64,000 bases of DNA, taken from contig CALRHC010000001.1 in the NCBI GenBank assembly GCA_943359335.1, positions 22,466 to 86,465 of the forward strand, read 5' to 3'. Both the position numbers and the translations under genes were made by a program. Of this stretch, positions 6,904-56,170 are shown one piece after another. Every line of letters begins with the position of its first letter. Within the stretch, counting starts at the first letter, position 1. The notes under the pieces are model-generated. The model did not search any database and was not told the origin of the DNA. It was given only the letters and a program-made list of their open reading frames with translations. This DNA comes from Candidatus Yanofskybacteria bacterium (lineage in GTDB: Bacteria; Patescibacteriota; Minisyncoccia; JACQLN01).

Positions 6904-7266
6904 ATGATAAATTCTTACAAAGATTTAATTGTTTGGCAAAAATCATTGAAGTTATCATTGTTGGCTTATGAACTTACCGAAAAATTTCCAAAAGAAGAAA
7001 TCTATGGCTTAACATCGCAAATAAGAAGATCGGCAGTATCAATACCGTCTAATATAGCTGAAGGAAGATATAGAGGGACAAAAAATGATTTTACTCAGTT
7101 TTTAAGAATAGCTTATTCTTCGGGCGCAGAATTAGAGACACAAATAGAAATAGCTAGAAATTTATCAAAGACAAAAGATTTAGATTATTCAAAAATAGAT
7201 ATTTTAATAGTAGAGGTTATGAAGATGTTAAATGTTATGATAAGAAATATAAATCCTAAAAGCTAA
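6904..7266 (+). CDS. four-helix-bundle protein (23S rRNA intervening-sequence protein family)
   Basis: 120 aa, LIVWQKSLKLSLLAYELTEKFPKEE...QIRRSAVSIPSNIAEG..F..IAYSSGAELETQIEIA is the signature of this family. Confidence 0.75.
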   Translation: MINSYKDLIVWQKSLKLSLLAYELTEKFPKEEIYGLTSQIRRSAVSIPSNIAEGRYRGTKNDFTQFLRIAYSSGAELETQIEIARNLSKTKDLDYSKIDILIVEVMKMLNVMIRNINPKS

Positions 7267-7289
7267 AGAAGCTAGTGAAGCTAAAAGCT
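7258..7289 (+). repeat. right arm (GCTAATGAAGCT type) of the palindromic repeat family, ending at the ATG at 7290
   Basis: AGCTAAAGAAGCTAGTGAAGCTAAAAGCT|ATG; same arm precedes ATGs at 15601, 20835, 23430, 33591 and 36412(-). Confidence 0.6.
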
Positions 7290-9005
7290 ATGAATGACGA
7301 AATAACTTTATTTGCCGAAACAAATTTTAGAAACGAGAAGCGTCGTTTTGGTATTAAAAAAGACGATCGCCGCAGGCACACCTATATTATTGGAAAAACC
7401 GGTATGGGTAAAACGACCATGCTCGAAAACATGATTATTTCGGATATTATTCATGGCAAGGGTTTAGGTTTTATAGACCCACACGGGGATTCGGCCGAGA
7501 AAATTTTAGAATTTGTTCCACCAGAACGCATAAACGATGTAATTTATTTCGATCCTTCCGATTTAGAAATGCCTATAGCTTTTAATGCTATAGAAAATGT
7601 TGAAGCCGAAAAAAAGCATTTAGTAGCTTCGGGTTTGATGGGTGTGTTTAAAAAAATCTGGCCCGATGTATGGTCGGCCAGAATGGAATATATTTTAAAC
7701 AATACTATTTTAGCTTTGCTAGATTACCCTGGCGCCACTATTTTGGGTATTATGCGAATGCTTTCTAATAAAGAATACCGCAAGCAAGTGGTGGATGAAA
7801 TTAAGGATCCAATGGTTAAATCTTTCTGGGTAGATGAATTTGCTAAGTATACAGATAGATTTGCGGCCGAAGCCACTCCAGCTATTCAAAACAAAGTTGG
7901 GCAGTTTTTATCGGCTGCGGTTATTCGTAATATTGTAGGCCAAGTAAATAGTGCTATGGATATGCGCAAGGTTATGGACGAAGGCAAGATTTTAATTATG
8001 AACCTTTCCAAGGGCAAAATCGGCGAAGATAATTCTAAACTTTTGGGTGGTTTGCTGGTTACAAAATTACAGTTAGCAGCTATGAGCCGTGTAGATATTC
8101 CCGAAGAAGACCGTAAAGATTTCTTTTTATACGTAGACGAGTTTCAGAATTTTGCGACAGAATCTTTTGGTAATATTCTTTCCGAAGCTCGCAAATATCG
8201 CTTAGCCCTTATTTTGGCTAATCAGTACATTGCTCAATTAGTGCAAAGCGTGGGTGGTTCTAAAAGCACAGCGGTGCGAGACGCAATATTTGGTAACGTT
8301 GGTACCCTAATTTCTTTTAGGGTAGGCGCCGAAGATGCCGAATATTTAGAAAAAGAATTTGCACCAGAATTTGTGGCAACCGATATTGTTAATTTAGCCA
8401 AATACAATGTTTACTTAAAACTTATGATAGACGGCGCAGCTTCGCGGGCTTTTTCGGCCACAACTTTAGCTCCATACCCAAAACCAGCTGTTAATAATCG
8501 CGATGCCATTATTAAACATTCTAGGGAAACTTATGGCACACCTCGCGAAGACGTAGAAAATGAAATAGCCGATTGGGCTGGTGTTAGAGATTTAATGCCA
8601 TCTAGTATAAAAGCAGCAAAAGCAGAAAGTGATGCTGCTTTTCGTGATGGTTACGATACAGAAGCCGCACCAGCGGTTTCTGCTTCCAAGCCAAAAAGCG
8701 ACAAAGATCTTTTTGAAGCTGTTTGTTGGGAGGGTGGGGAAAAAGTTTGGGTGCCATTTAAACCAGATGGAGTCCGCCCAATTTATTGTAAAAACCATTT
8801 ATATAAATTAAACGAAGTTAAACAGCAAGTTATTTTTGAACAGTTTAAACCAGTAAGTTTGAAAGATGCTTTGCAGAAGGGCGGCATAGTTAATCACATA
8901 GGTAATAATCCTCGTCCAAATAAAAAGAAAAATAAACCTAAAGAACCTCCAGCCGATATAGAAGGTTTGCGTTCGCTGCTTTCCGATATCAAGCCAACTA
9001 CTTAA
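7290..9005 (+). CDS. P-loop ATPase of the TraD/VirD4/HerA-FtsK-like superfamily (T4SS DNA-binding-domain type) with C-terminal Cys/His zinc-ribbon-like motif
   Basis: Walker A IIGKTGMGKTT, Walker B LYVDEFQNF; C-terminus CWEGGEKVWVPFKPDGVRPIYCKNH; start set at ATG 7290 (ORF-track GTG 7275 lies inside the repeat arm) by analogy with the other repeat copies. Confidence 0.6.
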   Translation: MNDEITLFAETNFRNEKRRFGIKKDDRRRHTYIIGKTGMGKTTMLENMIISDIIHGKGLGFIDPHGDSAEKILEFVPPERINDVIYFDPSDLEMPIAFNAIENVEAEKKHLVASGLMGVFKKIWPDVWSARMEYILNNTILALLDYPGATILGIMRMLSNKEYRKQVVDEIKDPMVKSFWVDEFAKYTDRFAAEATPAIQNKVGQFLSAAVIRNIVGQVNSAMDMRKVMDEGKILIMNLSKGKIGEDNSKLLGGLLVTKLQLAAMSRVDIPEEDRKDFFLYVDEFQNFATESFGNILSEARKYRLALILANQYIAQLVQSVGGSKSTAVRDAIFGNVGTLISFRVGAEDAEYLEKEFAPEFVATDIVNLAKYNVYLKLMIDGAASRAFSATTLAPYPKPAVNNRDAIIKHSRETYGTPREDVENEIADWAGVRDLMPSSIKAAKAESDAAFRDGYDTEAAPAVSASKPKSDKDLFEAVCWEGGEKVWVPFKPDGVRPIYCKNHLYKLNEVKQQVIFEQFKPVSLKDALQKGGIVNHIGNNPRPNKKKNKPKEPPADIEGLRSLLSDIKPTT

Positions 9006-15520: not shown

Positions 15521-15600
15521 ATCATCAGCTTCACTAGCTTCATTAGCTTATTAGGATATCAAACCTAAAAACTAAAGAAGCTAAAAGCTAAAAGCTAAAC
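15521..15600 (+). repeat. intergenic palindromic repeat (AGCTTCACTAGCTTCATTAGC ... GAAGCTAAAAGCTAAAAGCTAAAC|ATG)
   Basis: Member of the six-copy family; fills the whole rpsK-rpsD spacer and ends at the rpsD ATG. Confidence 0.6.
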
Positions 15601-16206
15601 ATGTATCAATCAACTTGTAAAAAATGCAGAAGACTAGGTTATAAGGTGTGTGATTCCGCTAAATGCGGTATGGTTCGCAAACCTTATCCACCAGGACAGC
15701 ACGGAAAAAATATTCGTCGCCGTCTTTCTGAATATGGAACCCAGCAAGCCGAAAAACAAAAGCTTAAACTTATTTATGGTTTAAGAGAAAAACAATTTAA
15801 AAAATATTTTGATACGGCTTCTAAAAAAAGCGGTATTACTCCTCAAATAATGATGGAGCTTTTAGAACGAAGATTAGACAATGTTATTTTTAGATTAGGA
15901 CTTGCTCCAACCAGACGTGCCTCAAGGCAATTAGTTGGGCATGGTCATATCACAATAAATAGCAAAAAGGTTAGCTCACCGTCTTATTCTGTGAGCCCAG
16001 GGGAATTAATAGATATTAAAGAATCCAGCAAAGCTAAAAAGACTTTTTCTGAAACCAAAACAATTTTAAAGAAATTTAATCCACCAAGATGGTTAGAGTT
16101 AGATAAAGAAAATCTTTCCGGAAAAGTGATTAGCGTACCAGATAAAGAATTTTTAGCTGGATTACCGGTAGAGGTTTCAAAAGTTTTGGAATATTATTCA
16201 AGATAA
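15601..16206 (+). CDS. rpsD: 30S ribosomal protein S4
   Basis: N-terminal Cys cluster CKKCRRLG..C..C, YPPGQHG, S4 domain. Confidence 0.9.
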   Translation: MYQSTCKKCRRLGYKVCDSAKCGMVRKPYPPGQHGKNIRRRLSEYGTQQAEKQKLKLIYGLREKQFKKYFDTASKKSGITPQIMMELLERRLDNVIFRLGLAPTRRASRQLVGHGHITINSKKVSSPSYSVSPGELIDIKESSKAKKTFSETKTILKKFNPPRWLELDKENLSGKVISVPDKEFLAGLPVEVSKVLEYYSR

Positions 16207-19753: not shown

Positions 19754-20758
19754 ATGTCGGTAAAAATTGGAATTGATTTGGGAACCGCTAATATTTTGGT
19801 GTTTGTCCCGTCAAAAGGGATAGTTATTAACGAGCCTTCAGTGGTAGCGGTTTCTTTAGATGAAAACAAAATTATGGCGGTTGGGCACGAGGCTAAAGAG
19901 ATGATTGGTAGAACACACGAAGGTATTATAGCTGTTCGGCCCGTTAAAGATGGAGTTATTGCGGATTATCGTATAACCGAAGCTATGATTCGGCACTTTA
20001 TTAAAAAAATAACCGGCAGGTTTAGCTTTTTTAGGCCTGAAGTTATGGTGGCAGTTCCGGCTGGTGTAACATCAACCGAAAGACGGGCTGTTATAGAAGC
20101 TACACTTAAAGCAGGGGCTAAGGCAGCATATGTTGTTAAGGAACCAATTCTTGCTGCTTTAGGCGCTGGCATACCTATAAACGAAGCTTCGGGTAATATG
20201 ATAATAGATATAGGCGGAGGCACTACAGAGGTGGCTGTAATATCGTTAGGAGGGATTGTGGCGTGGGCATCGGCTCGTGTTGGGGGTAATGCAATTGATA
20301 CAGCTATTCAAAACTATATTCACAAGGTTCATAATTTAGCTGTAGGCGAGCGTACTGCCGAGCAAATTAAAATTGCAATAGGTTCTGCTGTGCCAAAAAA
20401 AGAAGAAGAAATTTTAGAGATTCGTGGCCGTGACCTCGTGGCTGGTTTGCCTAAAACCATAGAACTCCATTCCAACGAAATTCCTAAAGCCATAAAAGAT
20501 ACTTTGGCTGAAATTATAAAGACAGTAAAAATGGTTTTACAAGAAACTCCACCCGAGCTTTCCGCTGATATAATGGATAAAGGCATGATTATTTCTGGTG
20601 GTACAGCTTTATTGCGAAATTTGGATAGTTTAATAACTCAAGAAACTGGCGTGCCTTGTTATGTTGCCGATGATCCACTTTTCTGTGTGGTTAAAGGCAC
20701 AGGGATAGCTTTAGAAAATTTAGAATTATATAAAAGAGCGTTGTTTGCTAAGAGATAG
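19754..20758 (+). CDS. mreB: rod-shape-determining protein MreB (copy 1)
   Basis: Actin-fold motifs IGIDLGTANILV, VAVPAGVTSTERRAV, IIDIGGGTTEVAVISLGG. Confidence 0.85.
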   Translation: MSVKIGIDLGTANILVFVPSKGIVINEPSVVAVSLDENKIMAVGHEAKEMIGRTHEGIIAVRPVKDGVIADYRITEAMIRHFIKKITGRFSFFRPEVMVAVPAGVTSTERRAVIEATLKAGAKAAYVVKEPILAALGAGIPINEASGNMIIDIGGGTTEVAVISLGGIVAWASARVGGNAIDTAIQNYIHKVHNLAVGERTAEQIKIAIGSAVPKKEEEILEIRGRDLVAGLPKTIELHSNEIPKAIKDTLAEIIKTVKMVLQETPPELSADIMDKGMIISGGTALLRNLDSLITQETGVPCYVADDPLFCVVKGTGIALENLELYKRALFAKR

Positions 20759-20834
20759 CTTCAAAAGCTTGTTAGCTTCTTTAGCTTGGTTAGGAAAATC
20801 TAAAAGCTAATGCAGCTAATGAAGCTAAATTTTA
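20759..20834 (+). repeat. intergenic palindromic repeat (AGCTTGTTAGCTTCTTTAGCTT ... AAGCTAATGCAGCTAATGAAGCTAAATTTTA|ATG)
   Basis: Family member ending at the holB ATG. Confidence 0.6.
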
Positions 20835-22827: not shown

Positions 22828-23358
22828 ATGGAGACACAAGAATTTAAAATTAAACTAAAAGAAGTCGCTACATTTTTGGCGAACGAACTATCAAAAGTGC
22901 GCAGTAACCGTGCTTCACCAGCTTTAGTGGAAGATATATCGGTAGATTATTTTGGCAATAAGACTCCAATAAAGGGTATTGCTAGCATAAGTTCATTAGA
23001 CGCTAGAACCTTGGTTATAGAACCTTGGGATAAAAGTGCCTTGGAACCAATTGCAAAGGCTATTGCCAATGCTAGTATTGGCGCGCAACCTATTGTAGAT
23101 AGCAAAAGCGTTAGATTAAGCTTGCCACAATTAACTCAAGAGCGTAGGCAAGAACTTATAAAATTGGTTTCTCAAAAAATGGAAGAAGCAAAAATAAGAG
23201 CTCGCAGATTGCGTGATGATGCCGTAAAAAGCGCCCAGCAAGAAAAATCCGAAGATATTAAGTTTAGAAAGAAAGACGAAATCGAAAAGGCGATGAAAGA
23301 AAATAATCAGGCTTTGGAAGATTTAAAAAGTAAAAAAGAGAAAGAGTTAATGAACTAG
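22828..23358 (+). CDS. frr: ribosome recycling factor
   Basis: LSKVRSNRASPALVEDISVDYFGNKTPIKGIASIS...LPQLTQERRQELIK. Confidence 0.9.
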   Translation: METQEFKIKLKEVATFLANELSKVRSNRASPALVEDISVDYFGNKTPIKGIASISSLDARTLVIEPWDKSALEPIAKAIANASIGAQPIVDSKSVRLSLPQLTQERRQELIKLVSQKMEEAKIRARRLRDDAVKSAQQEKSEDIKFRKKDEIEKAMKENNQALEDLKSKKEKELMN

Positions 23359-23429
23359 CTTTCAGCTTCATTAGCTTTTAGGAAACTACCTATAAGCTAA
23401 CGAAGCTAACGAAGCTAACGAAGCTAATC
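23359..23429 (+). repeat. intergenic palindromic repeat (AGCTTTCAGCTTCATTAGCTTTT ... (GCTAACGAA)x3 GCTAATC|ATG)
   Basis: Left arm complementary to the right arm; right arm is a 9-bp tandem repeat; ends at the rseP ATG. Confidence 0.65.
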
Positions 23430-24509
23430 ATGACAGTTTTAATATTTTTTATTGTATTATCTGTTCTAGTTCTGGCTCATGAATATGGCCATTACATAAC
23501 TGCTAAGCGCGCCGGCGCTAAGGTGGAGGAATTTGGTTTTGGTTTTCCGCCTAAAATTTTCTCTATAAAAAGGGGCGATACTGTTTTTTCTTTTAATTTA
23601 ATTCCCTTTGGCGGTTTTGTAAAAATATTTGGTGAATCTGGCGAACACAGAAACGAAGTTGGTAGTTTTTCGTCTTTAAAAATATCTAAACGAGCTAAAA
23701 TAGTTTGTGCCGGTGTTTTTATGAACTTGGTTTTAGCCTATGTGCTATTAAGTTTCGGAAATTTAATGGGCAGGCCAATGATTTTAGATGAAACAAATAG
23801 TGCTAAAGCTACTAATATTAAAATTCAAATAACTGCACTTTCCGAAAATTCTCCCGCATCAAGTAATGGTATTAAAGTGGGTGATTCTGTTATGGGTATA
23901 AAGTTAACCGATGGCACATTAAAAACATTTCCCGAAGTTTCCGAATTTAGATCTTTTGTAGAAAGCGAAGCCGGAAAAGAAATAAATTTAGTTTTATTGC
24001 GAGGCAAAGAAAATATAGATATTAAAATTACTCCACGTGTTAACCCGCCAGAAAACGAAGGTGCTTTGGGTGTGGCTCTAGCTAAAACTGGTTTGGTTAA
24101 ATCGCCGTGGTACTTATTTTTATGGAGCGGATTAAAAGATTTAGGCTTTATGGTTTGGATGATCGGATCCGCACTACTTTTATTTTTTAAAACTTTATTT
24201 ATTGAGGGCAGGGTAATGGGTGAAATTACAGGGCCAATAGGCATAGCTTCTTTAACGGGCGAGGCTTACAACATGGGTATAGTTTATTTGTTAAATTTAG
24301 TAGCCATACTTTCTGTTAATTTGGCTATACTAAACATAATGCCTTTTCCGGCGCTTGATGGTGGCAGGTTAGTGTTTTTAATCATAGAAAAAATAAAGGG
24401 CTCGCCTTTAAGCCAAAAATTTGAAAATACAGTAAACGTTGCTGGGTTTATTTTGTTACTTGCACTAATGTTTTTTGTAACTTGGAAAGATATAGTTAAA
24501 TTTTTCTAA
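23430..24509 (+). CDS. rseP: RIP site-2 zinc metalloprotease RseP (M50)
   Basis: HEYGHYITAKRAG (HExxH), PDZ insert, C-terminal LDGG motif (FPALDGGRLVF). Confidence 0.85.
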   Translation: MTVLIFFIVLSVLVLAHEYGHYITAKRAGAKVEEFGFGFPPKIFSIKRGDTVFSFNLIPFGGFVKIFGESGEHRNEVGSFSSLKISKRAKIVCAGVFMNLVLAYVLLSFGNLMGRPMILDETNSAKATNIKIQITALSENSPASSNGIKVGDSVMGIKLTDGTLKTFPEVSEFRSFVESEAGKEINLVLLRGKENIDIKITPRVNPPENEGALGVALAKTGLVKSPWYLFLWSGLKDLGFMVWMIGSALLLFFKTLFIEGRVMGEITGPIGIASLTGEAYNMGIVYLLNLVAILSVNLAILNIMPFPALDGGRLVFLIIEKIKGSPLSQKFENTVNVAGFILLLALMFFVTWKDIVKFF

Positions 24510-30260: not shown

Positions 30261-30336
30261 TGGCTGTGCCCCAGGGAGTCGAACCCCGATAGCCTCCTCG
30301 TTTAGAGGTGGTGTCCTGCCATTGAACGAGGGCACA
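30261..30336 (-). tRNA. tRNA of unresolved identity with non-canonical anticodon arm (19 nt in place of 17)
   Basis: Acceptor UGUGCCC/GGGCACA (U1-A72), D-arm GUUC-AAUGGCA-GGAC, T-arm CGGGG-UUCGACU-CCCUG, encoded GCCA; anticodon region CCACCUCUAAACGAGGAGG folds only as an imperfect stem with a 5-, 7- (CUAAACG) or 9-nt loop. Confidence 0.5.
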
Positions 30337-33506: not shown

Positions 33507-33587
33507 ACACAGCTTCGTTAGTTGTTAGCTTCGTTAGCTTTTAGTAAATTTTGAAAGCTAGTGAAGCTAGAAGCTAAAAGCTAAATA
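33507..33587 (+). repeat. intergenic palindromic repeat (CAGCTTCGTTAGTTGTTAGCTTCGTTAGC ... GCTAGTGAAGCTAGAAGCTAAAAGCTAAATATTG|ATG)
   Basis: Family member ending at the recA ATG (33591). Confidence 0.6.
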
Positions 33588-33590
33588 TTG

Positions 33591-34634
33591 ATGGCTAAAA
33601 AAAATATAGTTCCAGAAGAAAAATTTCCTGTAAAATCAAATAGTAAGGGTTTACAAGAAACCGTAAAAGAAATCAGAGAACGTTTTGGAGAAGGTTCCAT
33701 AATGGCTTTGGGCGATGCACCAAAAGTAGATGTTGATGCGATTCCAACAGGATCAATTTCTTTGGATCTGGCTTTGGGTGTGGGTGGAATACCAAAAGGA
33801 AGGGTAGTAGAAATATATGGCCCGGAAAGCTCTGGTAAAACAACTCTAACTTTGCATATTGTAGCCGAAGCACAGCGACGTGGTAGTTTAGCTGCTTTCG
33901 TTGATGCTGAACACGCACTTGATCCAGACTATGCTAAAAAGATTGGTGTTAACATAGATGATCTTTTGGTTTCACAACCAGATAATGGTGAACAAGCATT
34001 AGACATTGTGGAGGCCTTGGTAAAATCTGGTAGGGTCGGTGTTGTGGTTGTAGATTCTGTAGCAGCATTAACTCCTCAAGCCGAAATAGATGGCGAGATG
34101 GGCGATATGCAAATGGGTTTGCAAGCAAGATTAATGTCTAAGGCGCTTCGAAAACTTACAAACATTGCTTCTAAAAGCGGAACAACAGTTATATTTACAA
34201 ACCAAATAAGAATGAAACTTGGTGTTATGTTTGGCAACCCAGAAACTACTCCGGGTGGAAATGCTTTAAAGTTTTTTTCTTCGGTAAGAATGGATATTCG
34301 CCGCATCGCGCAATTAAAAAGCAAAGAAGAAATTGTTGGAAACCGTGTCCGTGTAAAAGTTGTAAAAAATAAAGTAGCCGCGCCTTTTAGGCAAGCAGAG
34401 TTTGATATTATGTATAACCAAGGTATTGCATCGCTCGCGGATATTTTGCAAACAGGTGTGCGCTTGGGTGTGCTAGATAAATCTGGTTCTTGGTATCAAT
34501 ACTCTGGGCAGAAAATAGGGCAGGGCACAGAAGCCACAGTAGCCTATTTAAAAGAAAACGTTAAAACATCTTTACAGATATTAGAAGAAATAAAAAAGAA
34601 ATCTATAGACGCTCAAACAGCTTTAACAGCCTAA
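33591..34634 (+). CDS. recA: recombinase RecA
   Basis: [13 protein letters not shown] Walker A, L1/L2 loops; ATG 33591 preferred over TTG 33588. Confidence 0.9.
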
Positions 34635-35929: not shown

Positions 35930-36412
35930 TTAGAAGGGAATGTCCGAAATGTCAACTTCCTCGGCATCTTGTTCTATTATTGGTATGTTTTCTTCTTTTT
36001 GATTTTGACTTCTTTCTTGGGGTTTATTTGCTACTGGAGTATTTGGTCTGCTAGATGTAAAACTTGCTCCGCTTGTCTCACCAGCTGTTCTGGGTCCTAA
36101 CTGTATAGCTTCGGCGACAACTTCGGTTCTGTATTTTTTTGTGCCATCGGCTGCGTCCCAGCTTCGGTTTTGAATTCTACCTTCTACTAAAACCATTTTG
36201 CCCTTGTTTAAATATTTGGCACAGGTTTCAGCCATTCTGCCAAAAACAACAACATTATGAAACTGAGTATCTTGTTGTTTTTGTCCGCTTTTGTCGTTCC
36301 ATACTCTGTTGGTAGCAACTGCAAAGCTTGCGACAGTTCCGCCTGATGGTAGCGAACGCACTTCTGGGTCTCGGGTTAAATTACCAAGAACAAATATTTT
36401 GTTAAGATTCAT
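35930..36412 (-). CDS. ssb: single-stranded DNA-binding protein
   Basis: OB fold NKIFVLGNLTRDPEVR...FHNVVVFGRMAE..YL.KG..V.VEGR; acidic tail ending DISDIPF. Confidence 0.9.
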   Translation of the reverse strand: MNLNKIFVLGNLTRDPEVRSLPSGGTVASFAVATNRVWNDKSGQKQQDTQFHNVVVFGRMAETCAKYLNKGKMVLVEGRIQNRSWDAADGTKKYRTEVVAEAIQLGPRTAGETSGASFTSSRPNTPVANKPQERSQNQKEENIPIIEQDAEEVDISDIPF

Positions 36413-36497
36413 TAATTAGCTTTTAGCTTTTAGCTTTTAGCTTTTAGCTTTTTAGAAAATTCCTAACAAGCTAATGAAGCTAATGAAGCTAGTTTTA
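36413..36497 (-). repeat. intergenic palindromic repeat (minus-strand reading: TAGCTTCATTAGCTTCATTAGC ... (AGCTAAA)x5 AGCTAA|ATG of ssb)
   Basis: Five 7-bp tandem AGCTTTT units on plus; same family and same placement immediately 5' of a start codon. Confidence 0.65.
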
Positions 36498-41163: not shown

Positions 41164-43254
41164 TTACTCTTTGCCAAGGAATTTTTTCCAGCCAGGGAAA
41201 TCCTTATAGAAATAATATGGATTACCCGGAAGTTTTGGATCATTTCTATATGATCTTGTATACATAGGTCCTGAGATGATGTTCAGCTTTATCGCCGCTC
41301 TAGAAGCTTCTTTCCATGTTTTGTACTTAATGGATCCACCCAAGAATATAATCCAGCCAGGGAAATCTTTATAAGTCTCATCCGGATTACTTGGGAGTCT
41401 CTCATCTTTTTTGTAGTATCTTTGATACTTGGGTCCAGATGTGATGCCTAGAGATATGGCCGCTACTCCTGCCTCTTGCCAAGTCGGATATCTAACAGTT
41501 CTGTCTAAGAATACTGACCATCCCGGAAAGTTTTGGTAAGTAATTCTAGGTATTGATGGTAGCTTTCTATCTTTTTTATATTCTCCACTTTTATAACCAG
41601 ATGATGTTTTGATGCTCAACTTTACCGCCGCTCTAGAAGCTTCTTGCCAAGTTGGGTAAAAAATATTTTGTAAGAATTCTCCATATCCAGGAAAATCAGG
41701 ATAGGTACTGTTTGGATTTGATGGTAGCCTAGGGTCTTCCTTGTATCTCTCGTTCTTCTTGTAGTCTGTCGTATCTCTAATACCCAACTTTATCGCCGCT
41801 CTAGAAGCTTCTTGCCATGTCGGATACACATTTTCAGCAGTACGCTTGGGACCGCCCTTTCCTAAAAAAACATTCCAACTAGGAAAGTTTTTATAGGTAT
41901 ATGATGGATCTGGTGGTAACTTGTTATCTTTGCGATACATCTCTCGGTATTCGGATACTTTTTTAAGACCAAGTTTTTGTGTGGCTTGTGACGCTTCTTC
42001 CCATGTAGTATAGAATTCTCTTTCGCAATGATCTAGAACTTTCATTAAATCCACTACCTCATCAGAGAAAGTGAACTCAAATCCCTTTCCAGACACTTCA
42101 AACTTTTGTCTAGTATAACCTTCATGTTCTATCTCTTTTTTAGAAGTGTATTCTTCGTGAAGATTGGAAATTTTGTTCATCATCTCAAGTACTAGCTGAA
42201 TACGCTCAAGATTTCCCACAAAGTCTAGAACTATGAGCTTATCTTTTCCAGGACGAAGTCCGCGGCCAAGTTGTTGCCGAAAGACAGTCAAAACTCCAGT
42301 AACTCGGCAGAATGCAACCAATCCAACAGATGGAACATTAACTCCTTCGTTGAAAGCATTTACTGCACATACCCTGCGAACCGTTCCGTTATGCAAAGCT
42401 CCGAGAACTTTTTGGTTCTTACTCCAAGAGTCGTTCTTGTCTTTGCCTTTGCGTGAATGAAATGTTTCTGAAAGTTCAAGTGATTTACTGAGTCTTTCAG
42501 CGTGGGTAATTGAGTCGCAAAATACAACTGCTTTTTCAAGATAACCATTTATGATTCTCGTGATTTCTTCGTCACGTTTCCTTATAAAGATTCGGCGGTT
42601 AACTTCTGCCATGGTAAAACGTTTCTTGCCTTCATGGATTTCAGCTGTAATTTCTTGAAGTACTTTATCGTCCAAACTCTGGTCGGTAATAACGTGATAC
42701 TCAATTCTAGGAAGCCAACTACGGGCAATAGCTTCTTCTAGAGTTATGTTAATCACTTCGGGACCAAAGATGCTACGAATGTCTGCTCCATCTTCGCGGT
42801 CAGGTGTAGCAGTAAGACCGAGCTTAGCTCCGGTGAAGTAATTAGTTACTGGTCGATACGTTTCAGCTTCCGAGTGATGGGCTTCGTCTACGATGATCAA
42901 ACCAAAATGATTTCGTGACCATTGTTTAAGATTGTTTCTCATGGTCTGCCAAGTGGCAAAAACAATATCTCCTTCTTTTGCTCCGTTCTTTGACATGCCA
43001 TTATATATAACCATTCTAGTTTTTCTTTCATCAAAAACTAGGCCGAATTCATCAAGGGCGTGTTTCAGAATATGGTTGTTATGAACCAAAAACAAGGTTT
43101 TTTTGGGACGAAATTTCTTTGTAACAAATATAGCTGTTAGGGTTTTGCCCAAACCAGTAGCCATTACAACCAATGCTCTTTTAGAGTGACTACGTAATTC
43201 TTTCAGAGCGGCTTTAGTGGCTAGCTCTTGGTAAACACGAGGTTCTATCTTCAA
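41164..43254 (-). CDS. SF2 DEAD/DEAH-box (ResIII-type) helicase with five C-terminal tandem repeats of about 55 aa
   Basis: Walker A MATGLGKT, DEAH box IVDEAHH, helicase-C QQLGRGLR; repeats YPTWQEASRAAIKLGI...YK.D.RLPSNP..TY.DFPGW..FLG x5; GC about 41%. Confidence 0.65.
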   Translation of the reverse strand: MKIEPRVYQELATKAALKELRSHSKRALVVMATGLGKTLTAIFVTKKFRPKKTLFLVHNNHILKHALDEFGLVFDERKTRMVIYNGMSKNGAKEGDIVFATWQTMRNNLKQWSRNHFGLIIVDEAHHSEAETYRPVTNYFTGAKLGLTATPDREDGADIRSIFGPEVINITLEEAIARSWLPRIEYHVITDQSLDDKVLQEITAEIHEGKKRFTMAEVNRRIFIRKRDEEITRIINGYLEKAVVFCDSITHAERLSKSLELSETFHSRKGKDKNDSWSKNQKVLGALHNGTVRRVCAVNAFNEGVNVPSVGLVAFCRVTGVLTVFRQQLGRGLRPGKDKLIVLDFVGNLERIQLVLEMMNKISNLHEEYTSKKEIEHEGYTRQKFEVSGKGFEFTFSDEVVDLMKVLDHCEREFYTTWEEASQATQKLGLKKVSEYREMYRKDNKLPPDPSYTYKNFPSWNVFLGKGGPKRTAENVYPTWQEASRAAIKLGIRDTTDYKKNERYKEDPRLPSNPNSTYPDFPGYGEFLQNIFYPTWQEASRAAVKLSIKTSSGYKSGEYKKDRKLPSIPRITYQNFPGWSVFLDRTVRYPTWQEAGVAAISLGITSGPKYQRYYKKDERLPSNPDETYKDFPGWIIFLGGSIKYKTWKEASRAAIKLNIISGPMYTRSYRNDPKLPGNPYYFYKDFPGWKKFLGKE

Positions 43255-43364
43255 TTTAGACCACCTTTCTTTTCGGTAGGTATTTAATTTTTAAGGATCA
43301 AAAAGCATTTTATGCTTTGGCAACGATTATAACAATAATTATAGTTTTGTCAAGATTTTATTAG

Positions 43365-43415
43365 CTTTCTTAGTTCGCAATCTTTTTCGCCGCAGAATTT
43401 GTTCCAAAACCTTAA
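43365..43415. repeat. direct repeat DR1: degenerate copy of the last about 22 codons of the 43993..46866 gene
   Basis: CTTTCTTAGTTCGCAATCTTTTTCGCCGCAGAATTTGTTCCAAAACCTTAA matches 44006..44065 (about 85% identity, 9-nt deletion); minus-strand translation gives LRFWNKFCGEKDCELRKLIKS* versus LKFWNKFCGEKDCEYCELRKLIS*. Confidence 0.7.
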
Positions 43416-43441
43416 GTTTCACTGTTACTGTGGATAGAGTG

Positions 43442-43470
43442 TTGACTTCGCTTAAGTGTGTGAGTATAAT
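43442..43470 (+). promoter_or_regulatory. sigma-70 promoter TTGACT-17-TATAAT for the toxin-antitoxin cassette
   Basis: Consensus hexamers 40 nt upstream of 43510. Confidence 0.6.
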
Positions 43471-43509
43471 TGTAACATAATTTGTTACAATTAATTTTTT
43501 AATAAAAAC

Positions 43510-43725
43510 ATGCGTAATATAGTTAATATATCTTTACCTAAAGAGATGGTTCAAGCAGTAGAAGAAAGTATGAAGAAGAATAATTTTGCTACCAAAAGCG
43601 AATTTTTTAGGGCTATTTTGAGAACTTGGTTGGAAGATAAATTAGCTAAAGAACTAGAGGAGAGTAGAAAAGAATTACAGCAAGGTAAGGGTAAAATTTT
43701 AAAATCTCTTAAAACTCTTAGGTAA
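43510..43725 (+). CDS. ribbon-helix-helix (CopG/ParD-like) antitoxin
   Basis: 71 aa; ISLPKEMVQAVEESMKKNNFATKSEFFRAILRTWL is a RHH motif; directly upstream of a RelE/ParE-like ORF. Confidence 0.65.
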   Translation: MRNIVNISLPKEMVQAVEESMKKNNFATKSEFFRAILRTWLEDKLAKELEESRKELQQGKGKILKSLKTLR

Positions 43726-43734
43726 ACTTACCCA

Positions 43735-43992
43735 ATGCAGATTTACTATTCCACCAAGTTTAAGAGGGAATATAAAAAACTGCCAAAACAAGTAAAACTT
43801 TTAGCGGAAGAAAAAGAACAAATTTTCAGAAAAGATCTTTTTGATAAAAGGCTAGATACTCATAAATTACACGGTAAGCTAAAAGAATATTGGGCTTTTA
43901 GTATAGATGGTAAAAATAGAATAGTTTTTGAGTTTGCCAAGAAAAATGCTATTTGGTTTCATTCAGTTGGCGATCATTCTATTTATTATTAA
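43735..43992 (+). CDS. RelE/ParE-family type II toxin
   Basis: 85 aa; YSTKFKREYKKLPKQVK..L..HKLHGKLKEYWAFSIDGKNRIVFEF.....I.FHSVGDH fits the RelE/ParE fold signature. Confidence 0.65.
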   Translation: MQIYYSTKFKREYKKLPKQVKLLAEEKEQIFRKDLFDKRLDTHKLHGKLKEYWAFSIDGKNRIVFEFAKKNAIWFHSVGDHSIYY

Positions 43993-46866
43993 TTAGGAAA
44001 TTAACTTCCTTAGTTCGCAATATTCACAGTCTTTTTCACCGCAGAATTTATTCCAGAACTTTAAATTTAAAATTTCATCGGTACATTTTACGATAGTTTC
44101 TTTTAGCTCTTTGGTATGTTCGTTAGAAATTTCAAAAACCTCTCTTTTAAATCTGTTTTTATCGTCAGGCTCGGTAAAATCAATTGCACCTGCCATCATA
44201 TTATATTTTTTATTTGGCAATGAATCTAAAAGTAATTTGTAAAAAACCAATTGCCTAAAGTAATTACCGTCGGCGTTTTTTGTGTTGCCTAAAATTTCGT
44301 TACGGCTTTTGGCCGCACCTGTTTTGTAATCAACTACAGTTACAGCTGGGCTATTTGGTTTTAACTCAAGTCTATCTAGTTTTCCGCTTAGCTTAATTTC
44401 ATGTTTGCCTAAGTTTAAACTAACGCCTTTTATATTAAGCTCGTTAACTGTTTTTTGCGGTAAAGAGTCTTTATAAAAATTATAATAAGCCGTTAAACTT
44501 TCTATTCCTTTTTTAAGCAGGGCTTCGTGATCTTTCGGCATTAAAGGGTAATTTCGCAAATCTTCTATAAATTTTTCTATTATAAATTTATAAGTTATTT
44601 TTTTGTTTTTTTCTCTTTCGTCAAAGAATAACTGCAAAGCCTTGTGTTTGGCATTGCCGTAAATTAAATAATTAGCTTGGGCTTTAGGTATACGCAGTAA
44701 ATTGTTGTAGAAAAAATTCCAAGGGCAATCTAAGTAGTTGTTTAGAGAAGTAGGCGAGAAGCCGCGGTGTAAAAAGAGATCAATCACAAAAGATTTTTCA
44801 TTTATTTTTGGTTTTTCGTTATTAGAAGTTGAAACTAAAACAATCTTTTTAATTTCCGAGTTTGGTTTAGCAACAATTTCTTCTTTTAAAGATGGGTTAA
44901 TTTCGTTTATAAATTGGCTAGGGACTTGTTCTTTGCCATCGAACGAAGTTGTTGAGTAGGTAATAAAAGCTTCTTTTTTGGCGCGAGTTATGGCCATATA
45001 GAATAATCTGCGCTCGTCCTCGTTTTTTTCTATTTTACTAGCATCAAAGCTGGTTTTAATTGGTAGTTTAATATGGCTCATGTTTCGTTTATTGCCCCAG
45101 TGGCCGTTGTAGGCGCCAATAATAAAAACATAATCAAATTCTAAGCCTTTGGCTCGATGGGCTGTCATAAGCCGAATATTTTCCGGCAGGGTTTTTGTTT
45201 TAATTTGTATAGGTAGGTTGTGTTCTTTTAAAATTTCTAAATGGTTTATGTAATCTGGTAAAGAGAAGTTATGGTTAGCAAAATTTATTTTTTTAACTTC
45301 ACTAAAAAGAGTATGAAGCTTATTTAGTTTATCGTTGTAATTTTGCCCCGCTAGTAAATTTTTTAAATAACCAGATTCATTTATTACTTTTTCGAAAAAC
45401 TTAACAAATATATTGTTATGGCTATATTTTTTCCACTCGCCGATCTTTTTAAATAAATTAGAAACAGTAGGCGAACTATTAGGATTTTTTGATTCTATGG
45501 TTTGGAAAGTTTCAAGTGGATTAATATTTAAAAAATCTAAATGAAGTGCTGGGGCTAAAAACTCTAACGAGGGAAAGTTTTCTATAGCCTTAAAAAGTAT
45601 ATTTAATTTTTTAATATCTATGTCTTCTAGAATATTTTCATCGGATTCTACACCATGAGTTATATTTTGTTTGGTTAAAAAATCAGATAAAGAAAAAGCA
45701 TCTTTGTTTTCTCTGTATAAAATGGCAATTTTATGCGCCTCAACTTTTTGTTTTAGTAATTCTTTTATTTTTTGAGTTATAAAAAGATATTCAGATTCTG
45801 GAGATTCAAAAGAAATAACTTTAATATTGCTACCAGTGGTTTTTTGGTTTGCTTTCAATTGTACTGCAGCAAGTATGGTTTGGTTTTTTTCTATTAAACT
45901 ATGCGAAGCATCTAATATTTTTTGAGTAGAACGATAGTTTTGTTTAAGCTCTACTAATTTGGCTTTTTTAAATTTTTCTTTAAAATATAAAAAGTTTTCC
46001 AAACTAGCACCTTGAAACCTATATATAGCTTGTTTTTCGTCGCCTACAACGAACAGGTTTGGGTTTGTATCATAACTAGTTAAAAGTTCTAAAGCTTTGT
46101 TTTGGGCGCCGTTTGTATCTTGGTGTTCGTCTACTAATATGTACTGGTACTTTTCCTGAAGATCTAACAAAAAATCTTTATTCTTTTTAAGTGAATCTAT
46201 GGTTTCTAAAATCATATCTTCAAAGTCGTATAATTTTTTCTTTGAAAGTTCGTCTTGGTATTTTTTATAAACCAAAGATAATTCCTTTAAACGTTCAGTG
46301 TTCTTTTCCTCTTTAATATCTTCGGTGTTTATTTTTGAAGTTATATTTTTAAATTCTAAAGGATTAATACCTTCGCTTTTTAGTTGGCGGATATTTTTTA
46401 AAATTTCGGTAACATAATAATATTTATTGCCGAATGGTTTTAAGTTTTTAAAATTATTTTCGTCTATAATTTTTCTAACAATTTGAATTTGATCTACTTG
46501 GTTGGCATTATTGGAACCAATTATTTTTGGAAAATTTTCTGGGTAGTCTTGAATAATTTTGTTACAAAAGCCATGGAAGGTATGGATATTAATATAGTAG
46601 CTAGGCGTCCCTATCAAACTAGTCAAACGTCGCCTCATATTAGCAGTGGCGGATTCAGTAAATGTTAAAGCTAAAATATTTTCTGGGTTGGTATCGGTTT
46701 TGTTTAAGATATTAGCAATGCGCAAAGTTAAAATTTGAGTTTTACCTGTGCCAGGCCCAGCAATAACCATAACCGGGCCATCTATAGTTTCCACCGCTTG
46801 GCGCTGTTCGGGGTTTAAAGAAGTTAATTCTTTTTTGAATTTAGAGATGTCCATATTGGTTACCAT
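43993..46866 (-). CDS. UvrD/PcrA-type SF1 helicase fused to a C-terminal RecB/Cas4-like PD-(D/E)xK nuclease with Fe-S Cys cluster
   Basis: Walker A AGPGTGKTQ, UvrD motifs; C-terminus CPWNFF...DRLELK...VVDYKTG...CGEKDCEYC (4-Cys cluster plus DYK nuclease motif). Confidence 0.75.
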   Translation of the reverse strand: MVTNMDISKFKKELTSLNPEQRQAVETIDGPVMVIAGPGTGKTQILTLRIANILNKTDTNPENILALTFTESATANMRRRLTSLIGTPSYYINIHTFHGFCNKIIQDYPENFPKIIGSNNANQVDQIQIVRKIIDENNFKNLKPFGNKYYYVTEILKNIRQLKSEGINPLEFKNITSKINTEDIKEEKNTERLKELSLVYKKYQDELSKKKLYDFEDMILETIDSLKKNKDFLLDLQEKYQYILVDEHQDTNGAQNKALELLTSYDTNPNLFVVGDEKQAIYRFQGASLENFLYFKEKFKKAKLVELKQNYRSTQKILDASHSLIEKNQTILAAVQLKANQKTTGSNIKVISFESPESEYLFITQKIKELLKQKVEAHKIAILYRENKDAFSLSDFLTKQNITHGVESDENILEDIDIKKLNILFKAIENFPSLEFLAPALHLDFLNINPLETFQTIESKNPNSSPTVSNLFKKIGEWKKYSHNNIFVKFFEKVINESGYLKNLLAGQNYNDKLNKLHTLFSEVKKINFANHNFSLPDYINHLEILKEHNLPIQIKTKTLPENIRLMTAHRAKGLEFDYVFIIGAYNGHWGNKRNMSHIKLPIKTSFDASKIEKNEDERRLFYMAITRAKKEAFITYSTTSFDGKEQVPSQFINEINPSLKEEIVAKPNSEIKKIVLVSTSNNEKPKINEKSFVIDLFLHRGFSPTSLNNYLDCPWNFFYNNLLRIPKAQANYLIYGNAKHKALQLFFDEREKNKKITYKFIIEKFIEDLRNYPLMPKDHEALLKKGIESLTAYYNFYKDSLPQKTVNELNIKGVSLNLGKHEIKLSGKLDRLELKPNSPAVTVVDYKTGAAKSRNEILGNTKNADGNYFRQLVFYKLLLDSLPNKKYNMMAGAIDFTEPDDKNRFKREVFEISNEHTKELKETIVKCTDEILNLKFWNKFCGEKDCEYCELRKLIS
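44006..44065. repeat. direct repeat DR2 (authentic 3' coding end of the helicase-nuclease gene), partner of DR1
   Basis: See DR1; the two copies bracket the 43510..43992 toxin-antitoxin cassette and its promoter. Confidence 0.7.
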
Positions 46867-53532: not shown

Positions 53533-55248
53533 ATGAAATATAAATGGATTTTTAATGATCAGGCCGAGCCTGATTTTTTATCTAAAGCGCCGGAATATTC
53601 AGAAATAATATCTGCACTGCTTTTGGATAGAGGTTTAGATTCTAAAGAAAAAATAGAAAGTTTTTTTAATCCGGAATATTCTACCGGTTTGCACGATCCT
53701 TTTTTACTTAAAGATATGGATAAAGCTTGCGAGCGTGTCAAACGCGCTATAGCTAACAAGGAAAAAATTGTTATCTATTCCGATTACGATGTAGATGGCG
53801 TTTGTTCGGCTACAGTTTTAGGAGAATATTTTAAAAGCATAGATTATCCAATAGAGGTGTATATGCCCGATCGGCAAAAAGAAGGTCACGGTGTTAATCA
53901 AACTGCTTTAGAATCAATTATAGCTAATGGAGCTAAACTTATAATAACTTTGGATTGCGGTACTACTAACATTAAAGAAATAGAGTGGGCGAAAAATAAT
54001 GGGGTAGATATGATCGTGGTAGATCACCATCAAACCGTGGCAGGAAATCCAGCGACAGTGGCTTTTGTAAATCCCTATCAAGAAGGCGACACATATCCGT
54101 TTAAGGGTTTGTGTGGCACGGGACTCGCTTTTAAATTACACTGCGCTCTTAAGGGTGGAGATAGTTCTTCGCCGAAATGGCTTTTAGATTTAGTGGCTAT
54201 GGCTACTGTAGCCGATATGATGCCACTTTTGGATGAGAATAGGATGTTGGTTAAATATGGTTTATTTGTTTTAGCTAAAACAAAAAGAGTTGGTTTAAGA
54301 AAATTAATGGAATCAGCTGGAGTTGAGGCTAAATATAATTTAGAAACCATTAGCACTAATCTAGATAGCTTTACTTTGGGCTTTACTTTAGGCCCACGCA
54401 TAAATGCGGCAAGCCGTATGGCTCATGCCAATTTAGCTTACGAACTTTTAACCAGTAACGATGAATCTAAAATAGATGAATTAGTTTTATCTCTTAACGA
54501 TAATAATCGTAAACGTCAGCAAGTTGTAGATAAAGTTTTAAAAGATGTTCGTTCCAGAATAGACGCTTATTCAGAATTACCTAGTTTTATAGTGGAGGGT
54601 TCATCTGATTGGTCTATTAATCTTTTGGGTTTAGTAGCTTCAAAAATTACAGAGCGTTATCAAAGGCCAGTGTTGTTGTATCAAAACAAAGATGAGACTA
54701 AGGCCAAAGGCTCGCTTCGTAGTATAGACGGTTTTAATTTAATTGATGCCTTAGGATCGATTAGCAATTTACTTATTCAATATGGTGGGCATACTGCTGC
54801 GGGCGGTTGCACCTTCGAAATTTCTAATGCAGAAAAAGTAAAACTAGGTTTAGATGCTTATGCTAAAAATATTTTAACTCCAGAATTATTACAAAAAAAG
54901 TTAAAAATTAGCGCAGAAATAAATTTGGCTAAAATAGATTGGCCACTAATGGAAACACTCAAAAAATTTGAACCATTTGGCATGGCAAATCCTAAGCCAA
55001 AGTTTTTAAGTAGAGATATCGAAGTTACAAAACTGGTATTACTAGGGCAGAAAGCGGAACATTTAAAAATTTTTATAACCGATAAAAAAATAAATAAAAC
55101 TTTTCCAGTTTTGTTTTTTAGACATAATGGACTTGCCGAAGATTTTAAAATCGGCGACACTTTAGATGTTGTTTACGAGTTAGATATTAACGAATGGAAC
55201 GGGAATAGGGAAATACAATTAAAATTAATAGATTATGCCAAAAAATAA
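53533..55248 (+). CDS. recJ: single-stranded-DNA-specific exonuclease RecJ
   Basis: DHH motifs (YSDYDVDGV, DCGT, VVDHHQ) and DHHA1 YGGHTAAGG. Confidence 0.85.
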   Translation: MKYKWIFNDQAEPDFLSKAPEYSEIISALLLDRGLDSKEKIESFFNPEYSTGLHDPFLLKDMDKACERVKRAIANKEKIVIYSDYDVDGVCSATVLGEYFKSIDYPIEVYMPDRQKEGHGVNQTALESIIANGAKLIITLDCGTTNIKEIEWAKNNGVDMIVVDHHQTVAGNPATVAFVNPYQEGDTYPFKGLCGTGLAFKLHCALKGGDSSSPKWLLDLVAMATVADMMPLLDENRMLVKYGLFVLAKTKRVGLRKLMESAGVEAKYNLETISTNLDSFTLGFTLGPRINAASRMAHANLAYELLTSNDESKIDELVLSLNDNNRKRQQVVDKVLKDVRSRIDAYSELPSFIVEGSSDWSINLLGLVASKITERYQRPVLLYQNKDETKAKGSLRSIDGFNLIDALGSISNLLIQYGGHTAAGGCTFEISNAEKVKLGLDAYAKNILTPELLQKKLKISAEINLAKIDWPLMETLKKFEPFGMANPKPKFLSRDIEVTKLVLLGQKAEHLKIFITDKKINKTFPVLFFRHNGLAEDFKIGDTLDVVYELDINEWNGNREIQLKLIDYAKK

Positions 55249-55687: not shown

Positions 55688-55727
55688 CAAAACATCCAGC
55701 TCGCCTAGAGAGCTGGATGTTTTTGTT
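55688..55727. terminator. bidirectional terminator AACATCCAGCTC-GCCTAGA-GAGCTGGATGTT with A-run/T-run; 3' end of both rnhA (+) and rnpB (-)
   Basis: 12-bp perfect stem; core CCAGCT...CCTAGA...AGCTGG repeated at 56221. Confidence 0.7.
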
Positions 55728-56170
55728 AAGAAAGTCGTAAGCCGAATTCTGTCTTGCCTCAACGGCAAGGATAATCATCTGTCTGGGATTGTTATTGCTA
55801 ACAACCTCTGGCGACTCTTCCTTAATAATTTAGATTACTAAGGACACGGTCTTGCACCAAGTGGGGTTTACAACTATTTAGTATTGCTACTAAACAGAAT
55901 CGCGTTTGACGCGACACTTTTCACCTTTAGACTCAATTTTTACATTGAGCTTAGTATAGTCTCTGTTGCATAGGCTCACGGAATCAGCTGTCATCAATGA
56001 ACCTATATCCAATAAAGGACACTTTCCCTGGGCTTGAACCTAATTTTCATTAGATCTGCTCCCGGTTGCATTTCGCAACCACTTGTTTCCTCCGTTTATT
56101 CAACGGATTCGGTGTTCGGACTTTCCTCAATCCATTTTTAGATGAATTGCGATTATCTCACTTTCTTAAC
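55725..56170 (-). ncRNA. rnpB: RNase P RNA (bacterial type)
   Basis: Minus strand carries the universal GAGGAAAGUCCGAACACC (P4 5' strand), ACAGAAUUCGGCUUAC (P4 3' strand) and a perfect P1 GUUAAGAAAGU/ACUUUCUUAAC; minus-strand promoter TTGACT-17-TATCAT at 56205..56177; no ORF of substance. Confidence 0.85.

Follow-up and report, generated by a model that had tools for sequence, protein, structure and literature searches.

The toxin-antitoxin operon and its flanking repeats

The window analysed here is a stretch of 64,000 nucleotides (nt) from the Candidatus Yanofskybacteria contig CALRHC010000001.1 (positions 22,466 to 86,465), and the subject of this report is a small toxin-antitoxin (TA) operon within it that lies between two versions of the 3′ end of a single helicase-nuclease gene. 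The antitoxin is a ribbon-helix-helix (RHH) protein of 71 amino acids (aa), encoded at 43510–43725 on the plus strand (Pfam RHH_1, 35.2 bits with a cut-off of 20.5, E = 1.1e-8). The toxin, with 85 aa (43735–43992, plus strand), is a predicted mRNA interferase of the RelE/YafQ type with matches in both Pfam and NCBIfam. Its score with Pfam YafQ_toxin is slightly below the cut-off of 30 (28.5 bits, E = 1.9e-6), and that with NCBIfam RelE_StbE TIGR02385 exceeds the cut-off of 27.9 (31.2 bits), which places it in the RelE/ParE superfamily. The two open reading frames (ORFs) have the same orientation, with the antitoxin first, and are separated by 9 nt. They are preceded by a promoter (43442–43470, plus strand) that consists of a −35 hexamer TTGACT (43442–43447), a 17-nt spacer and a −10 hexamer TATAAT (43465–43470), with 11 of the 12 consensus positions matched. 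Adjoining the −10 hexamer is an operator-like palindrome, TGTAACA-TAATT-TGTTACA (43471–43489, plus strand), presumably the binding site of the RHH antitoxin. Promoter, operator, antitoxin and toxin together make up a self-contained type II TA operon of ~580 bp. From what is known of these families, the antitoxin would be expected to repress the promoter via the palindrome and to neutralise the toxin, and free toxin would be expected to cleave mRNA on the ribosome. A first-pass annotation had placed an RHH antitoxin and a RelE/ParE-like toxin with their own promoter between two direct repeats, DR1 and DR2, and all of these features are present.

The gene converging on the operon (43993–46866, minus strand) encodes a protein of 957 aa with the domains UvrD-helicase, UvrD_C and PDDEXK_1, i.e. 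a UvrD-family helicase with a C-terminal PD-(D/E)XK nuclease of the Cas4/AddB-like kind that carries a Cys cluster. Its stop codon and that of the toxin gene directly abut, with zero bases between them. DR2 (43993–44068, minus strand) is the functional 3′ end of this helicase-nuclease gene and comprises its last 24 codons and the stop, reading NLKFWNKFCGEKDCEYCELRKLIS. On the far side of the operon, DR1 (43350–43419, minus strand) comprises 22 codons and a TGA stop and reads NLRFWNKFCGEKDCELRKLIKS, as the first-pass annotation had it. Stop codons occur in frame immediately upstream of DR1, so that DR1 is part of no ORF now. Between DR1 and the TA promoter lies a left edge of inserted DNA of 22 nt (43420–43441, plus strand), which has no similarity to the empty sites described below nor to other cassettes. 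The structure of the locus across the repeats is identical in four independent assemblies (ENA ERZ27280297 and ERZ27280327; Logan ERR3719144 and ERR5863107), and therefore it is no assembly artefact.

A gapped local alignment pairs 43360–43419 with 44000–44068, with 53 of 60 positions identical, one 9-nt in-frame gap and a score of 72. The similarity is far above chance, since 2000 shuffles of the intergenic region gave a mean score of 18.2 (sd 2.7) and a maximum of 31; the next-best match to DR2 elsewhere in the 64-kb window scores 28. Aligned by codons of the minus strand, the two sequences are homologous over 43350–43419 and 43993–44068, with the stop codons included. The repeats are hence real, and slightly longer than the ~55 bp originally reported.

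The new helicase tail (43993–44013) forms, together with the preceding codons, a near-palindrome TTAGGAA-ATTAAC-TTCCTTA at the toxin junction. Folding of the junction region is no better than that of shuffles (z = 0.77), and the junction contains no terminator; the convergent toxin and helicase genes have no terminator between them, so each transcript is expected to run antisense into the other gene. Rfam gave no known RNA in the repeat or the junction, the only hits being RNase P and tRNA elsewhere in the window.

Empty sites in relatives

Relatives, designated here by L numbers, were located in genome and metagenome collections with the helicase as query. The helicase genes of L001 (90% aa identity) and L011 terminate in CEYCELR(K/R)LIKS and a stop; an 83-nt spacer and then an SNF2-type gene follow, and there is no TA pair. 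The helicase of L009/L010 also ends with LIKS, with different genes downstream. In these four relatives the helicase end reads CEYCELRKLIKS and is colinear into DR1 and the flank of DR1. DR1 together with its left flank aligns unbroken to L001, L011 and L009; the alignment begins exactly at the cassette edge, 43419, and extends as far as the start of the SNF2 gene. The repeat sequence is single-copy in L001, L011 and L009, and two helicase ends exist in the window lineage only.

The native tail, AAA TCT TGA CA, overlaps the −35 hexamer of the downstream promoter, and AAATCTTGACA or AAGTCTTGAYA is conserved at the helicase ends of the empty sites. DR2, on the other hand, ends with IS before its stop, versus IKS in every empty site. 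In the window, the downstream promoter is that of the SNF2/ResIII gene (43326–43353, minus strand; TTGACA-16-TGnTATAAT, 12 of 12 consensus positions), and its −35 overlaps the displaced TGA stop of DR1. It is a perfect sigma-70 consensus promoter whose −35 hexamer includes the native TGA stop of the helicase gene, and this overlap of promoter and stop may account for the conservation of the KS tail in the empty sites.

The empty sites of L001, L011 and L009/L010 bear out the first-pass proposal that a cassette integrated into, and regenerated, the 3′ end of a protein-coding gene, and they speak against the ancient duplication and drift that had been named as a simpler explanation. The accompanying view of DR1 as a slightly decayed copy has to be reversed. 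DR1 is colinear both with the KLIKS end of the empty sites and with the downstream promoter, and its differences from DR2 are nearly all synonymous. No displaced helicase end was found in the TA-bearing lineages L012, L021–24 and L052, and no presence/absence polymorphism was seen in the window's own population, in which look-ups with the exact toxin and adenylate kinase sequences gave cassette-bearing contigs only.

Divergence between the two gene ends

If DR1 is the original end, where does DR2 come from? The pattern of differences between the two bears directly on this question. DR1 and DR2 match exactly over 13 nt at most, and their differences are scattered along the entire repeat. These differences amount to 8–10 synonymous substitutions (the count varies with the placement of the 9-nt gap), a single conservative K/R replacement and two indels of 9 nt and 3 nt, both in frame. 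A null model was simulated in which the copies are identical at birth, after which the functional copy takes synonymous changes only and the displaced copy mutates freely. It predicts 6.6–8.2 non-synonymous differences between DR1 and DR2, and only one was observed (P ≤ 0.0004). In an outgroup comparison with four relatives, most of the unique changes fall on DR2 and all of these are synonymous, while DR1 has ~2 unique changes and the 9-nt deletion. This deletion takes out the codon of one Cys ligand and is the sole clear sign of decay.

The almost wholly synonymous divergence and the in-frame indels therefore indicate that, while they diverged, each of the two ends served a working gene in a separate genome. 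DR2 is best understood as a foreign orthologous end that would have arrived with the cassette rather than been duplicated in place, and DR1 is the native gene end displaced by the insertion and not a decayed copy of DR2. Since the two ends had already diverged by ~12–17% before the insertion and share no run of identical bases longer than 13, the flanking repeats are ill suited to excision.

The toxin-antitoxin family and a second case

Homologues of the toxin numbered 129 at E ≤ 0.001. Among the 120 listed, nearly all are 84–89 aa long and 54–81% identical to it (the self-match aside), and those with a source name come mostly from Parcubacteria-type Patescibacteria. An alignment of 20 toxin sequences has 15 invariant residues. 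In a comparison of 11 genomic contexts, conservation extends from the −35 hexamer through the toxin stop codon, with nothing in common outside. The −35 TTGAC and the promoter spacing are kept in 10 of the 11 contexts, the copy without a TTGAC −35 being that of L012, and the operator consensus TGTAAYAYAAWTTRTTACA is broadly conserved in all 11.

A second case with the same geometry was found in L025/L026, where a related operon (toxin 77% identical) lies between 61-nt direct repeats (3130–3190 and 3775–3835 in L025; 204–264 and 849–909 in L026). The L025 repeats are identical at 53 of 61 positions, with a longest identical run of 20 and a score of 82 versus a shuffle maximum of 28. The right repeat is the last 20 codons and the stop of a convergent UDP-glucose/GDP-mannose-dehydrogenase-like gene, ending with KQVSDHSHKLALKPKKIRA, and the left repeat still translates as NQVSDHSHKLALKPKKIRD up to its stop. 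Between the two, 6 changes are synonymous and 2 are non-synonymous (P = 0.014 under the null of identical duplication). In a relative, L050/L051, the dehydrogenase gene has no TA pair after it. The repeats of the window and of L025 have nothing in common and no shared motif; the same geometry arose at two unrelated genes, independently. The DNA between the repeats is ~584 nt in L025 and ~580 nt in the window, the repeats are of similar length (61 and 69–75 nt), and both end at a stop codon. As to the earlier choice between a small TA cassette and a remnant of a larger element, the same size of the L025 cassette fits the former better, and a larger integrase-bearing remnant less so. A Xer/dif-like site judged by eye in DR2 was dropped as a candidate because the L025 repeats have no motif in common with it.

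Flanking repeats were absent from the other toxin-homologue contexts L027, L034 and L038. L029, L042 and L047 have other repeats, none of them gene ends, and were not counted as cases. In L029, of Sungbacteria type, a block of ~2 kb (a 61-aa ORF, the TA pair and a 250-aa ORF) lies between gapped non-coding direct repeats of ~130 nt (2697–2825 and 4683–4809), adjoining a DDE_Tnp_1_4 insertion sequence with perfect 27-bp inverted repeats (1151–1177 and 2633–2659); the block may be another long-repeat insertion. The TA segment of L047 lies between 42-nt repeats with an internal palindrome (41 of 42 identical; 2057–2098 and 3321–3362), and that of L042 between 34-nt terminator-like hairpins (2508–2541 and 3591–3625); these may be footprints of insertions or dispersed repeats.

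Variable cargo between the helicase gene and rpoD

Beyond DR1, the window carries a ResIII/SNF2-type helicase gene (41164–43254, minus strand, with its start at 43254), which encodes 696 aa including four C-terminal INT_rpt repeats. These 'integrase repeat unit' repeats are encoded by tandem DNA repeats of 165–168 nt (41255–41826). The interval between the helicase-nuclease gene and rpoD is a variable hotspot with alternative cargo in relatives. It holds the SNF2/INT_rpt helicase in the window, L001 and L011, an HNH_repeat protein and a ParB-like protein in L009/L010, and the TA pair with an 81-aa ORF in L012. The SNF2-type helicase itself resembles variable, possibly defence-related, hotspot cargo.

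The exchange of such cargo can be seen in near-identical groundwater populations, L012 (1–791) versus L009 (4005–4769) and L010 (868–1632), which differ in the cargo between helicase gene and rpoD. The helicase gene of L012, which has the TA pair, is 100% identical to that of L009, which lacks it, over 688 nt, after which there are 5 mismatches in 77 nt, and the homology stops 26 nt ahead of the stop codon. This is a homologous exchange with a breakpoint ~100 nt before the end of the helicase gene.

The TA pair stands next to the helicase gene again in L021–L024, L052 and L012, and the helicase genes of some of these lineages are only 60–65% identical in DNA. In L012, L021/22/24 and L052, the TA operon abuts the helicase stop or overlaps it by 4–10 nt, without any repeat, and the junction tails of these repeat-less arrangements are LTTNQS, MPKN and LPNS. 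The recurring association is not explained by simple vertical descent. Between the window and L012, the TA operons are 78.5% identical and the helicase genes 87.6%; between L012 and L021 the values are 77% and 63%, respectively. The tree of the TA operon is in conflict with that of the helicase, and therefore the operon moves horizontally. Its G+C content is 3–9 points lower than that of each host context, with the exception of L012, where the difference is ~1 point.

Search for mobility functions

No integrase or transposase was found in the cassette, which has the two TA genes only, nor among the genes checked with Pfam from 30.4 to 59.4 kb, although a recombinase encoded elsewhere in the genome may act in trans. 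The cassette ends have no terminal inverted repeats and no common att-like motif in the 11 contexts, and an identical att core between DR1 and DR2 was not found. A scan of viral contigs with the toxin profile gave nothing that would point to carriage by phages. Several known kinds of mobile DNA were considered and set aside. A transposon, insertion sequence or miniature inverted-repeat transposable element is ruled out by the absent terminal inverted repeats and by the lack of conserved ends in 11 contexts. Long target duplication of the IS1634 type by a transposase acting in trans was also rejected, as the insertion sequence of L029 is separate and its 27-bp inverted repeats exclude the TA operon. 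An integron gene cassette is contradicted by the operon's own promoter and by the toxin and helicase stops, which leave no bases for an attC site between them. The window does contain recA (33588–34634), ssb (35930–36412) and recJ (53533–55248), and therefore the host has homologous recombination functions.

Origin of the insertion

We propose that the operon was imported by host recombination, through one homologous exchange and one illegitimate joint, with no dedicated integrase or transposase. We give this explanation a probability of about 0.6. The donor DNA, by whichever route it may have entered the cell, would have come from a related Patescibacteria genome in which the TA operon already abutted the orthologous helicase gene, and the recipient would have been a cell of the L001/L011 type. 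The first joint would be a homologous exchange in the helicase gene, at or upstream of DR2. On the second side there would have been no homologous partner, because the cargo beyond the TA operon differed, and the DNA just upstream of the TA promoter would have been fused illegitimately to the recipient's gene at −69, i.e. 69 nt before its stop. The process would be homology-facilitated illegitimate recombination (HFIR). Its product would have the order gene body, foreign end (DR2), TA operon, native end (DR1) and native flank, and an addictive TA pair would then select against its own loss. In E. coli selections for HFIR, mostly duplications of 109–950 bp of gene-end homology were recovered (PMC3240628).

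Such an import explains why the repeat ends at the stop codon, why the differences are synonymous, why there is no recombinase and why relatives have repeat-less arrangements of the donor type. It is supported by the empty sites, the divergence pattern, the L025 case, the tree conflict, the exchange seen between L012 and L009, the donor-type arrangements and the lack of mobility signals. Eleven window-specific alleles cluster at gene positions 2754–2859 (from about −120) after 122 nt with none, which is a weak signal and not significant.

Several points weigh against import. All of the compared sequences are metagenome assemblies, so that the evidence is at assembly level. Neither a donor genome nor a closer TA-free relative of the window lineage was found among them, and the homologous crossover upstream of DR2 is for this reason not mapped. 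DR1 and DR2 have 3–4 derived bases in common versus all other genomes, which implies either a rather closely related donor or some gene conversion after the insertion. Finally, the similar repeat lengths and the stop-codon ends of the two cases could hint at a mechanism more defined than an arbitrary illegitimate joint.

Among the rival explanations, an integrase-free, self-propagating cassette would take the form of a circle that carries the TA operon and one gene end, arising either when the repeats recombine and release it or when a fragment circularises. Entry into orthologous genes would be by a single crossover of the Campbell type in the ~70 nt of gene-end homology, with the gene end as a portable attachment site. 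A single crossover of this kind gives exactly the observed structure, including a repeat that ends at the stop codon, and single crossovers of recircularised molecules with shortened gene-end homology were commonest in E. coli (56 of 60 clones, with 109–950 bp duplicated; PMC3240628). Also in favour of the circle are the recurrence of the TA family beside the 3′ end of the helicase gene, where the junctions are of three types (IS, LTTNQS and MPKN/LPNS), and a second repeat-flanked case of similar repeat length in L025. However, the circle could draw on no more homology than 69–75 nt that are ~85% identical, the longest perfect run being 13 bases (20 in L025). Homology of this length and identity is below the usual minimum for RecA-mediated crossing-over. 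Moreover, DR2 is foreign-looking along its full length, so that the crossover would need to fall at the extreme edge of the homology; the shift to a new target gene in L025 would still require an illegitimate event; and no excised or polymorphic state occurs in contigs of the same population. A circularised fragment that enters in this way is closely akin to import by a homologous exchange and an illegitimate joint; we rank the circle below such import, and regard it as unlikely. A remnant or satellite of a site-specific integrative element, of the cis-mobilisable type, would make DR1 and DR2 its attL and attR sites, the tyrosine or serine recombinase having been supplied in trans or lost by deletion. 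Integrative elements commonly carry TA modules at their ends, and the outcome matches integrase-driven integration at a gene 3′ end, with direct repeats up to the stop codon, a regenerated gene and an empty site in relatives. What makes this origin quite improbable is that there is no integrase in the cassette or among the Pfam-checked genes (30.4–59.4 kb), no identical core beyond an exact match of 13 nt, and, in 11 contexts, nothing conserved beyond the segment from promoter to toxin stop. Closely related cassettes, equal in size, sit at two unrelated gene ends with no motif in common, and two independent deletions would be needed to trim both elements to the same minimal size.

A true long target-site duplication would start from a staggered break of ~60–70 nt that is filled in, giving copies identical at birth, of which DR1 has since decayed. 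It has a parallel in the 'insertion with long target duplication' of restriction-modification complexes (PMC2853133), and the similar repeat lengths in the window and in L025 would suit it. Yet the simulation rejects it for the window (P ≤ 0.0004) as well as for L025 (P = 0.014), the differences being nearly all synonymous; the outgroup comparison assigns more unique changes to the functional copy than to the supposedly decaying one; and both repeats stop at a stop codon, which is not expected of a staggered cut. We consider such a duplication even less probable than the integrative remnant. Least credible of all, and very hard to maintain, is that there was no insertion, and that the repeats reflect an old local duplication and drift, or a chance resemblance, around a TA operon ancestral at this position. 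The presence of the operon beside the helicase gene in several lineages, some of them 60–65% identical in helicase, makes an old association conceivable, but the similarity of the repeats greatly exceeds what chance would give, empty sites colinear with DR1 occur in four relatives, two helicase ends are a feature of the window lineage alone, and the TA tree conflicts with that of the helicase.

A wider and more tentative suggestion, which we think unlikely, is that the TA family is a minimal enzyme-free mobile element. It would travel in physical linkage with the conserved final ~20 codons of a core gene, and this coding segment would be its portable homology arm, in effect a protein-coding 'att site'. 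If it were so, the family would invade orthologous genes in other Patescibacteria via host recombination, replacing the gene end each time and leaving the native end as a fossil, and the element would then be held there by the divergence of the ends and by addiction.

Neighbouring genes and other features of the window

The neighbours of the locus are housekeeping genes, namely dnaG, rpoD, adk, map, ruvX, tpi, pgk, recJ, recA, ssb and ftsK, and the window also encodes a bacterial class A RNase P RNA (55723–56168). A family of intergenic palindromic repeats of ~65–80 nt, built from TAGCTTCA/TGAAGCTA-like units in both orientations, has copies at 7247–7290, 15527–15603, 20756–20829, 23353–23432, 33511–33588 and 36422–36494. 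One copy folds as a long hairpin (−21 kcal/mol, z = −4.6), and the repeats may be repetitive extragenic palindromic (REP)-like elements or bidirectional terminators. ARAGORN reports a tRNA-Phe with the unusual anticodon AAA (30261–30336, minus strand) beside a tRNA-Gly(GCC); at the Rfam gathering threshold only the tRNA-Gly is reported.

Implications and comparison with known systems

The movement of chromosomal TA operons without mobility genes is poorly understood, and this locus is an unusually readable footprint of it. It is a record of gene flow and of a cargo hotspot, from the helicase gene to rpoD, in groundwater Patescibacteria, which are not yet genetically tractable. It also carries a warning for annotation, namely that the final codons of a gene may differ in origin from the remainder of the gene. 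The insertion is not categorically new, and the polarity assigned to the changes rests on few sites.

Integrase-mediated integration at the 3′ ends of protein-coding genes is exemplified by e14 and phage 21 in icd, and by ICESt1/ICESt3 and their integrase-less cis-mobilisable element (CIME) derivatives in fda. These elements carry a diverged substitute 3′ end, which completes the gene after integration, the native end being pushed aside. In the window, likewise, a foreign end completes the gene, the native end lies on the far side and the direct repeats run to the stop codon. Unlike the icd and fda elements, the cassette is a bare operon of ~0.58 kb with no integrase, no identical att core and no conserved ends, and one cassette family occupies two unrelated gene ends. 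The likeness to integrative elements drawn in the first-pass annotation thus holds for the outcome; for the enzymology it has no support, with no integrase, att core or inverted repeats seen in any context.

TA cassettes of chromosomal integrons and the pdif (Xer) modules of Acinetobacter plasmids are small exchangeable TA modules, and the operon described here resembles them as a small TA unit acting as a discrete exchangeable module. It differs from them in that there is no room for attC and there are no inverted Xer-type 28-bp sites, its direct repeats being derived from the target gene.

TA-only 'islets' have been proposed to spread by transformation or transduction, followed by homologous recombination in the core genes on either side (PMC13617665, Mol Biol Evol 2026). 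The window has the same kind of compact TA-only locus between core genes, free of mobile-element genes and patchy among close relatives, and the exchange between L012 and L009 is what that model proposes. The text of PMC13617665 contains no 'direct repeat', 'target site' or 'insertion site', and its single 'duplication' concerns a recent duplication of a TA system and not of a gene end. Unlike the islets, the window has one evidently non-homologous joint, which has left a fossil gene end. With HFIR or single-crossover insertion-duplication (PMC3240628) it shares the one-sided homology and the gene-end duplication flanking the insert. In contrast to those laboratory constructs in E. coli, the event in the window is a natural one, inferred from sequence, and its repeat is shorter and more diverged.

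Of the systems described so far, the nearest is the 'insertion with long target duplication' seen with restriction-modification gene complexes (Nobusato et al. 2000; Furuta, Abe & Kobayashi 2010, PMC2853133). In these insertions, the mechanism of which is unknown and which come mostly from naturally competent species, the repeats measure 46 to >400 bp, are single-copy in the empty site and in some cases overlap the 3′ ends of genes, as do the 46-bp repeats in H. influenzae (PMC2853133). Both there and here, a small addiction-type unit is inserted without integrase, transposase or inverted repeats. With its 580-bp insert and its repeats of 60–75 nt, single-copy in the empty sites, the window also fits their description as inserts of <20 kb with no mobility genes and repeats of >30 bp. 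Here, however, the cargo is a type II TA operon, the host belongs to the Patescibacteria (candidate phyla radiation, CPR), and the repeat is all coding and ends at a stop codon. The codon-wise comparison of stranded and imported ends distinguishes recombinational import from a true target duplication, and the ratio of non-synonymous to synonymous divergence (dN/dS) between flanking repeats is therefore a reusable test, applicable to the long target duplications around restriction-modification genes. The published repeats are near-identical and were interpreted as target duplications (PMC2853133), whereas, and this is the difference above all others, the two copies in the window differ synonymously, and therefore one of them was imported rather than both being the recipient's own duplicates.

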